Virus record (IMG/VR): IMGVR_UViG_3300042987_003051
Location: 19,075 to 83,074 of that record
Strand: one strand, 5' to 3'
DNA length: 64,000 nt
Origin: a virus
In this document: one piece after another, positions 9,647 to 10,821 of the stretch
Layout of the letters: each line of letters begins with the position of its first letter
Position numbering within the stretch: position 1 is the first letter of the stretch
Notes under the pieces: model-generated
Told to the model about the DNA's origin: nothing
Database searches by the model: none
Seen by the model: only the letters and a program-made list of their open reading frames with translations
Translations under genes and position numbers: made by a program

Positions 9647-10351
9647 ATGAGAATAGATCTTCATAACTTTTTTAAACATTTTGATGAGAATAATCTCAAG
9701 CATATTGAGGCAGTTGAAAAACTAGAAAAAGTTTTAGAAAATAAAGTACCCGAAGAAATTGAAGATACTTCTGATTGGGTCAAAACTTTTAGAACAAAAG
9801 AACAACCGAAAGTTCCTTCAGTGCTAAATGTTCCTTTTTATCCACAAACAGATAATTATAGAGATGCTCAGAGAACTTGTAATTCATCTGCTTGTGCGAT
9901 GTGCTTAGAGTATCTAAAACCAGGTACTCTTTCTGGGGCAAAGGGAGATGATGCCTATATTCAAAAAGTTTTTGCTATTGGTGATACTACAAGTCACGAA
10001 GTTCAGACAAAAGTTTTATCATCTTATGGTATTACTTCTAAATTTATTAAAAATTTATCTTTTGTTGATCTTGATCGTGAGCTTGCCGCTGGGAGACCTG
10101 TTGTTATCGGGATTCTTCATCGTGGCCCTTTATCTGCTCCTACTGGTGGACACATGCTTGTGGTAAAAGGTAAAAAAGGTGAAGACTATGTTGTGAATGA
10201 TCCTTATGGTTCTTTGAATGACGGTTATACTGGACCCGTAACGAATGGTAAGGATGCCTTATATAAGAAGTCTGACTTGGTTCGTAGATGGACTGTTGAT
10301 GGTCCGAATACTGGATGGGGACGTATCTTTGATCCAGTAAAAAAGTCCTGA
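9647..10351 (+). CDS. Peptidase C39-like cell-wall hydrolase
   Basis: LNVPFYPQ, CNSSACAM (Cys), GGHMLVV (His) and VNDPYG (Asp). Confidence 0.85.
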   Translation: MRIDLHNFFKHFDENNLKHIEAVEKLEKVLENKVPEEIEDTSDWVKTFRTKEQPKVPSVLNVPFYPQTDNYRDAQRTCNSSACAMCLEYLKPGTLSGAKGDDAYIQKVFAIGDTTSHEVQTKVLSSYGITSKFIKNLSFVDLDRELAAGRPVVIGILHRGPLSAPTGGHMLVVKGKKGEDYVVNDPYGSLNDGYTGPVTNGKDALYKKSDLVRRWTVDGPNTGWGRIFDPVKKS

Positions 10352-10821
10352 ATTCTATTCCTCTGAGTTCTGGAATAGAATTAATTAAAGAATTTGAATC
10401 TTGTGAATTAAAAGCATATCCTGATCCTGGAACTGGGAATCTTCCAATCACAATAGGTTGGGGAAGTACCAGAGATTTTGACGGAAAACCATTTAAAATT
10501 GGACAAAAGATTACTCAAGAATATGCTGATAAACTATTTGATCATCAGATACAAAATGAATTTCTCCCGAAATTGAAAGACATTCCTTATTGGAATGAAA
10601 TGAATTCTAATCAACAAGGGGCACTTTTATCATTTGCGTATAATATAGGTGTTGATTTTTACGGAAAATCTGGTTATGATACAATCACAAGAGTATTGAA
10701 AAATAAAGAATGGAATAAGGTTCCTGATGCATTATATCTTTATCGCAATCCGGGAACAAGTGTAGAAGTTGGATTAAAGAGAAGACGAATTGTTGAAGGA
10801 AACCTTTGGAGTAAAAAGTAA
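10345..10821 (+). CDS. GH24 phage lysozyme domain, probably translated by -1 frameshift from the upstream peptidase
   Basis: Open frame VLNSIPLSSGIELIKEFESCELKAYPDPGTGNLPITIGWGSTR...GLKRRRIVEGNLW; no ATG/GTG/TTG before 10573. Confidence 0.85.
   Translation, partial: VLNSIPLSSGIELIKEFESCELKAYPDPGTGNLPITIGWGSTRDFDGKPFKIGQKITQEYADKLFDHQIQNEFLPKLKDIPYWNEMNSNQQGALLSFAYNIGVDFYGKSGYDTITRVLKNKEWNKVPDALYLYRNPGTSVEVGLKRRRIVEGNLWSKK

Follow-up and report, generated by a model that had tools for sequence, protein, structure and literature searches.

A C39-like peptidase and a start-less lysozyme in a cyanophage lysin gene are probably joined by a programmed -1 ribosomal frameshift

The dnaX gene of Escherichia coli contains a -1 frameshift cassette in which an A_AAA_AAG heptamer is followed by a stem-loop, and its shifted product is the shorter of the two. 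OrfA/OrfAB of IS911 and gpG/gpGT of phage lambda are -1 frameshift systems as well. Phage lysin genes are known to yield two products by a different route, an internal translation start, in the enterococcal Lys170 and the clostridial CD27L and CTP1L. Lysis by cyanophages releases much of the carbon that picocyanobacteria fix. We have analyzed a 64,000-nucleotide stretch of DNA from a freshwater cyanobacterial virus (IMG/VR record IMGVR_UViG_3300042987_003051, positions 19,075 to 83,074), hereafter the window, in which a gene for a C39-like peptidase overlaps a lysozyme reading frame that has no start codon of its own. On comparative grounds, we consider it very likely that this gene uses a dnaX/IS3-type -1 programmed ribosomal frameshift to produce a 234-amino-acid peptidase and a 391-amino-acid peptidase-lysozyme. 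The features of the lysin gene, and the terminator-like hairpin ahead of it, all lie on the plus strand.

No description of a peptidase-lysozyme frameshift was found in open-access full text, in agreement with an initial annotation of this DNA, made from the sequence alone, which held the arrangement to be undescribed for cyanophage lysis genes. The nearest report concerns Alteromonas phage vB_AspP-H4/4, in which a slippery sequence and a -1 shift were predicted between overlapping genes 39 and 40, one of them annotated as an endolysin gene (PMC5658483). In that genome announcement, the prediction occupies one sentence and comes without comparative or structural support; it differs from the window in that the phage is an Alteromonas podovirus, the second gene encodes an internal virion protein and there is no peptidase-lysozyme pair. 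The paper on PRFect lists 'lysins' among genes known to contain a frameshift, citing Shearman et al. 1994 for a lactococcal phage lysin (PMC10885494). The 300,000 characters searched of a review covering the dnaX, IS3-family and lambda systems (PMC5009743) contain no occurrence of endolysin, lysozyme or cyanophage.

The peptidase open reading frame (ORF), supported by the ORF list, Pfam and PHROG, occupies 9647-10351. Its 234 codons comprise an N-terminal module and a C39-like (papain-type) peptidase, the predicted short product, and its 3' end reads GTA (10337) AAA AAG TCC TGA (10349-10351). The initial annotation had proposed a slippery site, a hairpin and a start-less lysozyme at this junction, and each element was verified. 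The heptamer A_AAA_AAG lies at 10339-10345 in the X_XXY_YYZ phase and is followed by a five-nucleotide spacer, TCCTG (10346-10350), which includes a CTG (10348-10350) overlapping the stop as CTGA. The 0-frame stop is thus placed one codon past the heptamer. A putative stimulatory hairpin identified by folding (10351-10382) begins five nucleotides past the heptamer and consists of a perfect 11-bp stem, with arms at 10351-10361 and 10372-10382, and a 10-nucleotide loop. The -1 frame is closed upstream by a TGA at 10330-10332, which sets the 5' limit for a shift reaching the lysozyme, and is open from 10333 through the stop at 10819-10821. The heptamer therefore sits between the -1-frame TGA (10330) and the 0-frame TGA (10349), where both frames are open. 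The -1-frame translation reads SSKKVLNSIPLSSGIELIKEFESCELKAYPDPGTGNLPITIGWGS... The earliest ATG, GTG or TTG of this frame in the ORF list is a TTG at 10573-10575, located 177 nucleotides past the codon for the catalytic glutamate (10396-10398), from which only an 82-amino-acid C-terminal piece would be made. The predicted products, as the initial annotation had calculated, are 234 and 233 + 158 = 391 amino acids long. The -1-frame part of the long product (10345-10821; 158 amino acids plus stop) consists of a linker and a GH24 lysozyme, as supported by translation, PF00959 and PHROG 3617.

Under the proposed mechanism, translation would initiate at ATG 9647 and proceed through the N-terminal module and the C39-like peptidase. 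The majority of ribosomes would decode AAA AAG TCC and terminate at TGA 10349, releasing the 234-amino-acid peptidase. A minority would stall at the slippery heptamer (10339-10345), with the 11-bp hairpin lodged where the mRNA enters and the stop only one codon further on. In these stalled ribosomes, both tRNA-Lys would move back by one base to pair with AAA AAA, and reading would continue from GTC 10345. The outcome would be a 391-amino-acid protein made of the peptidase, a linker encoded by the hairpin and the complete GH24 muramidase. The lysozyme would have no expression route of its own, and the locus would act as one translational unit. That slippage takes place here is what we infer from the anatomy of the junction and its conservation in relatives.

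Both halves of the predicted fusion belong to recognized enzyme families. The upstream ORF matches the Pfam profile Peptidase_C39_2 (PF13529) over its full length at residues 60-187 (E 1.8e-12; 48.4 bits vs a cut-off of 24). Residues C78, C83, H158, H169 and D185 are invariant in 25 peptidase sequences, and the catalytic residues are presumed to be among the invariant cysteines and histidines. A search of solved structures with a profile of these 25 peptidases found none (best E 0.57, azurin). In agreement with the initial annotation's claim of a complete GH24 lysozyme, the downstream domain matches PF00959 (Phage_lysozyme, GH24 muramidase) at 74.2 bits vs a cut-off of 22.3, covering profile positions 1-123 of 125. 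Its catalytic segment reads ...KEFES...YPDP...ITIGWG, and its residue roles we take to be those of T4 lysozyme. PHROG 3617 is a single family of 405 positions, of which the window's peptidase matches 1-233 and its lysozyme 247-404; phrog_10051 ('endolysin') also matches the peptidase ORF. Both halves hit endolysin families of PHROG, and relatives in GenBank carry endolysin annotations, so that these family names suggest a lysin role, with action on the cell wall, for both products, though the enzyme may instead be virion-borne and act at entry.

The N-terminal module of the peptidase (residues 2-52, about 50 amino acids beginning RIDLHNFFK...; 9650-9802) is shared with the stand-alone lysozyme of phage DSL-LC03, whose N-terminus (L004, 2275-2430) is 51% identical to it over 51 amino acids (E 3e-14). 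It could be an assembly or targeting domain. Since the separate lysozyme of DSL-LC03 has its own copy of the module, the comparison suggests that the lysozyme requires the module in cis; the window's lysozyme can gain it only through fusion. The N-terminal domain of the heptamer-less lysozymes of the L008 type was considered as kin of this module and set aside, as no relation was detectable (E 1.5).

The arrangement is widespread among cyanophages. DNA and protein searches of deposited phages matched cyanophages only (59 and 93 records, respectively), and three peptidases were used to query IMG/VR for further loci, of which the best 80 of 226, all 25 of 25 and the best 80 of 426 were taken. 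Of the 197 sequences, 161 contained both domains, 29 had no lysozyme in the fetched stretch, six had no peptidase match and one had a partial peptidase. Removal of identical junctions left 117 distinct ones. In 86 of these, A_AAA_AAG is in phase and the lysozyme occupies the -1 frame: 51 have no ATG, GTG or TTG ahead of LIKEFE, 22 have GTG or TTG only and 13 have an ATG. One further junction has A_AAA_AAA with an ATG, and three (S-CAM7 and two IMG/VR contigs) have an in-phase U_UUU_UUU. The remainder consist of 13 overlapping junctions without a heptamer (12 with an ATG start and one with a GTG start), 10 in-frame peptidase-lysozyme fusions, two cases with the lysozyme upstream of the peptidase and two pairs of separate genes. 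An in-phase heptamer is thus found in 90 of the 103 overlapping distinct junctions, and the frame relation is -1 in all 77 two-domain loci of the first set. Heptamer and -1 phase are therefore kept across homologous loci, the comparison that the initial annotation had called for. It had also raised the prospect of homologs lacking the slippery site; every overlapping homolog of this kind has its own start (13/13), and a slippery heptamer is present for each of the start-less lysozymes (53/53). The table of heptamer against start (52/37 vs 0/13; 102 junctions scored) gives a Fisher p of 3.8e-5, which is nominal only because the rows are related. In about 90 distinct relatives, too, a start-less lysozyme is most likely made only by way of a -1 slip.

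Several named phages illustrate this series. In S-PM2 (L002, NC_006820, 2178-2675) the peptidase ends GCA AAA AAG TAA and the lysozyme lies in the -1 frame, of which the record annotates only the last 72 codons as a 'putative lysin' (72 amino acids). The record of S-CAM7 (L087, NC_031927, 2193-2717) likewise annotates only a C-terminal lysozyme fragment ('lysin', 90 amino acids). In both phages, the -1 frame runs open from the peptidase's slippery site through the whole lysozyme domain, and the frameshift reading would apply to these laboratory phages as well. S-CAM7 and the two contigs that resemble it have a peptidase about 53% identical to the window's, with GTT TTT TTT at the equivalent place forming the in-phase U_UUU_UUU; a hairpin of -16.7 kcal/mol follows five nucleotides 3' of it, and the start-less lysozyme is in the -1 frame. 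Other readings hardly account for an alternative slippery sequence with apparently the same role. In S-SRM01, two genes named 'endolysin' overlap by ATGA, ACG-2014f has a single in-frame peptidase-lysozyme ORF of 405 amino acids, S-CREM1 has a single ORF with the lysozyme first, and in DSL-LC03 and DSL-LC02 the peptidase and lysozyme are separate genes. Judging from ACG-2014f and the other in-frame ORFs (10/117 junctions), the peptidase-lysozyme fusion is a natural form of the protein. Two of these 10 junctions, in IMG/VR contigs of the S-PM2-like clade (L174 and L196; junction at ~2180-2200), are of the frameshift type but have an A7 run and an in-frame fusion reading ...KKVE..., the exact trans-frame junction that is predicted; the fusion may have become fixed in nature or may reflect a homopolymer error of assembly.

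Codon choice at the slippery site was analyzed in 87 A-type junctions. The codon ahead of the lysine pair ends in A in all 87 (GCA 48, GTA 37, ACA 1, GAA 1), and GCA and GTA make up 37% of alanine codons and 26% of valine codons in the same ORFs. The lysine pair itself is AAA AAG in 86 of the 87 junctions vs 9 of 66 other Lys-Lys pairs of these ORFs. The signal is thus conserved at the nucleotide level past the needs of the protein. The 0-frame stop directly follows the heptamer in 64 of the 87 junctions and comes one codon later, as in the window, in the other 23. A stop adjoining a slippery site enhances slippage.

The hairpin in the window has a folding energy of -12.6 kcal/mol (z = -2.56), and two of 200 shuffled sequences were as stable. 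A stem is present in every lineage, beginning a few bases past the heptamer and ending just ahead of the LIKEFE codons, with a loop of 7 to ~50 nucleotides. From one lineage to another, the stems show no relation in sequence, as seen in the window type, the S-PM2 type and at least three further types. The spacer between heptamer and hairpin measures 2-8 nucleotides in 64 of 75 junctions. Fold z scores below -2 were obtained for 68 of 75 heptamer junctions without ATG, 6 of 14 heptamer junctions with ATG and none of the 13 heptamer-less junctions. As the initial annotation had suggested that hairpin covariation be examined, arms were exchanged between loci: 5' arms paired with their own 3' arms at a mean of -13.7 kcal/mol vs -6.9 kcal/mol with the arms of other loci, and for most strong stems none of ~30-39 distant arms paired as well. 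In a pair table with the 3' arm indexed by coding frame, several positions showed three to five standard pair types, and 890 positions were paired; when the 5' region was shuffled 20 times, this number averaged 499 and never exceeded 540. Pairing is therefore kept while the sequence changes. The hairpin also differs with the presence of a start codon, its median energy being -4.6 kcal/mol in ATGA-start junctions (n=13) vs -16.0 kcal/mol in start-less ones (n=50; Mann-Whitney p = 1.7e-5, nominal).

The most serious rival to frameshifting is that the lysozyme is translated alone, by re-initiation at the near-cognate CTG 10348 within CTGA or at some other non-canonical codon (ATT, ATA), that is, by translational coupling with no change of frame. 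This appears unlikely, although the gene family does provide arguments for it. Relatives carry ATGA, GTGA or TTGA at the exact position of the CTGA, and the closest lysozyme relative (L041) has TTGA there, which counts against frameshifting. An ATG start occurs in 26 overlapping junctions (13 with A_AAA_AAG, one with A_AAA_AAA and 12 heptamer-less), so coupling is used in this gene family. Stop-overlap re-initiation cannot apply, however, to the 64 A-type junctions in which the stop abuts the heptamer (AAG TAG/TAA/TGA), since no start-like codon overlaps the stop there, and the 51 junctions without any ATG, GTG or TTG ahead of LIKEFE speak against it as well. The window's further near-cognate codons (ATT 10357, CTG 10363 and ATA 10375) lie inside the hairpin region with its 11-bp stem, and unscored inspection by eye saw no Shine-Dalgarno-like motif ahead of them. 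Re-initiation also leaves unexplained the invariant third-position A, the choice of AAA AAG and the strong hairpin at the very place where a re-initiating ribosome would need access.

A second alternative, which we regard as very unlikely, is transcriptional slippage, in which the polymerase would insert an extra base into some transcripts at the A6 run (T8 in S-CAM7); standard translation of these would then yield the fusion. Both lineage-specific sites are indeed homopolymer runs, and the two A7 contigs fuse the frames at the DNA level, so a form with one additional A is viable. Six A residues are, however, short for productive transcriptional slippage. The G after the run, invariant in 86 of 87 junctions, has no role for a polymerase, and the conserved and covarying hairpin 2-8 nucleotides 3' of the run (64/75) is a hallmark of a ribosomal shift. 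Near-identical DNA was found, among the matches listed, in 20 runs from 15 studies (fresh water, lakes and aquaculture), four of which were compared across the A run. Contigs of three DNA runs from three studies (X3, 10096-10900; X4, 10100-10900; X6, 10066-10900) crossed the A6 run with no gaps, and a contig of a metatranscriptome library (X18, 10230-10421) spanned it with no gaps and no differences. The extra A of a homopolymer error, which the initial annotation had suggested checking for, is thus seen in none of the three DNA assemblies or the RNA-library contig. Because contigs rather than raw reads were compared, the A6 of the RNA library says little about rare variants or true transcription, as contigs hide such variants and the library may hold DNA. 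The hairpin and the invariant G point to slippage that would be ribosomal and not transcriptional, although slippage by the polymerase could contribute.

A third possibility is that the lysozyme is a decaying or already defunct gene, or that faulty assembly broke the frame, and that only the peptidase is made. The truncated 'lysin' annotations of S-PM2 and S-CAM7 suggest it, but as far as contigs can tell it is highly improbable: three independent assemblies share the A6 run, the -1 relation holds in 77 of the 77 two-domain loci of the first set, the lysozyme frame stays open over 158 codons both here and in every relative examined, with 62-78% amino-acid identity and a full-length Pfam match, and this lysozyme is the sole PF00959 match in the source record (83,074 bases, rated 39% complete).

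Several further points weigh against the frameshift proposed here. The heptamer is common in an AT-rich genome (45 copies of AAAAAAG in the window vs 45.5 expected) and by itself is not significant; what exceeds chance is its combination with phase, hairpin and absent start, plus conservation in relatives. The surveyed loci are the top-scoring relatives of three queries and not a random sample. Fourteen junctions retain the heptamer despite an ATGA start, so heptamer conservation is not strictly tied to need. RNAalifold, applied to a plain MAFFT alignment of 40 junctions, returned no pairs and no consensus structure because lineages differ in how far the stem is offset from the heptamer; the covariation evidence therefore rests on custom scripts (arm exchange and pair table), and this failure is a weakness of its formal side. 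Once relatedness is controlled for, the association of ATG starts with weak hairpins is not significant and only suggestive. On a FastTree phylogeny of the peptidases of all 117 rows, with the last 12 codons omitted, there were 14 changes in ATG presence, 10 in the hairpin and seven in the heptamer, and among eight independent pairs the hairpin differed in the expected direction in ~4.6, in the opposite direction in none and not at all in 3.4 (sign test, median p = 0.06). The shiftiness of A_AAA_AAG is established for E. coli, and the host here is a cyanobacterium. For every member of the family, the case is comparative only.

Some additional features of the junction were noted. A possible partner for the hairpin loop (10362-10371) lies 47 nucleotides downstream at 10429-10439 and would form a long-range pseudoknot with a pairing energy of -10.8 kcal/mol, matched by three of 500 shuffles. 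Comparable pairing was found in only two of 49 simple-hairpin relatives (median z +0.22), and the pseudoknot was not counted as part of the signal. An Rfam search of the junction gave nothing near threshold (best SNORD123, E 0.49, 18 bits vs 45). A GGGGA ~17 nucleotides upstream of the heptamer pairs weakly with an anti-Shine-Dalgarno motif, at an uncontrolled -6.2 kcal/mol, and is at most a candidate enhancer. The upstream Shine-Dalgarno-like enhancer is specific to dnaX and not generally required, and the distance of the GGGGA in the window is longer than that in dnaX. A second AAAAAAG inside the peptidase gene (10172-10178; GGT AAA AAA GGT) is out of phase for tandem slippage. The only tRNA in the window is a tRNA-Thr.

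In the gene neighborhood, a terminator-like hairpin with a T run (9587-9610; 10 pairs, six of them GC) follows the peroxiredoxin gene and marks the upstream limit of the lysin transcription unit. A 106-amino-acid ORF (10822-11142) directly follows the lysozyme stop (TAA ATG) and is probably co-transcribed with the lysin, since the next terminator-like site on the same strand is at 11258-11277. Upstream of the lysin are a high-light-inducible-protein-like ORF (8372-8566; 64 amino acids) and the peroxiredoxin-like ORF (8965-9582), and both kinds of neighbor are shared by DSL-LC03 and DSL-LC02. A psbA-like ORF (12128-12457) stops short after 109 amino acids (...SLDEWLYK). Podovirus S-CBP4 (L090, NC_025464, 1498-2465) carries an unannotated peptidase homolog that is divided between overlapping ORFs in two frames (1498-1791 and 1704-2465), which could represent a further frame break within the family.

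As a tentative idea, to which we give low odds, the frameshift could serve as a stoichiometry device for a hetero-oligomeric lysin, in which abundant peptidase and rare fusion would be joined through their shared ~50-amino-acid module. Because tRNA-Lys and its modification govern slippage on AAA AAG, the product ratio could track the physiological state of the infected cyanobacterium, and so could the way in which the wall is broken down or the moment at which this happens. If frameshifting is confirmed, the gene models of widespread T4-like cyanophages would be corrected, including those of the laboratory models S-PM2 and S-CAM7, and a cell-wall lysis enzyme would be added to the few classes of phage genes known to rely on programmed frameshifting. 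Automatic annotation is bound to keep overlooking a frameshifted lysozyme. The family offers an unusually rich natural series of in-frame fusions, two slippery sequences, coupled ATGA forms and separate genes, which suits the study of how recoding signals are gained and lost, and it makes testable which wall hydrolase species cyanophages make at lysis and in what ratio.

The locus resembles dnaX tau/gamma of E. coli in its A_AAA_AAG heptamer, in a 3' stem-loop a few bases on and in two products that share their N-terminal part. Unlike dnaX, where the shift gives the shorter product, the window's shift would give the longer one and be the sole route to a whole enzyme domain, and in this gene family the 0-frame stop stands 0-1 codons past the site. 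The locus also resembles OrfA/OrfAB of the IS3 family (IS911) and gpG/gpGT of phage lambda, in which a -1 shift extends a short ORF into an overlapping start-less ORF, a minor long fusion accompanies a major short product as proposed for the window, and the signal is conserved across many phages. These systems serve transposition and tail assembly, whereas the window would join two cell-wall hydrolase domains of a lysin. The in-frame lysins (ACG-2014f, 405 amino acids; S-CREM1 and S-CBS2, with reversed order; PHROG 3617 and phrog_10051) have the same catalytic domains and module and are homologous throughout, but each is a single ORF with one product and no requirement for a heptamer or hairpin. 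Lys170, CD27L and CTP1L are like the window in that a single lysis gene yields two forms of different length, which have a domain in common and may associate with each other. They arise by internal initiation, and their short form is the C-terminal binding domain, whereas the window would rely on recoding and its short form would be the N-terminal peptidase.

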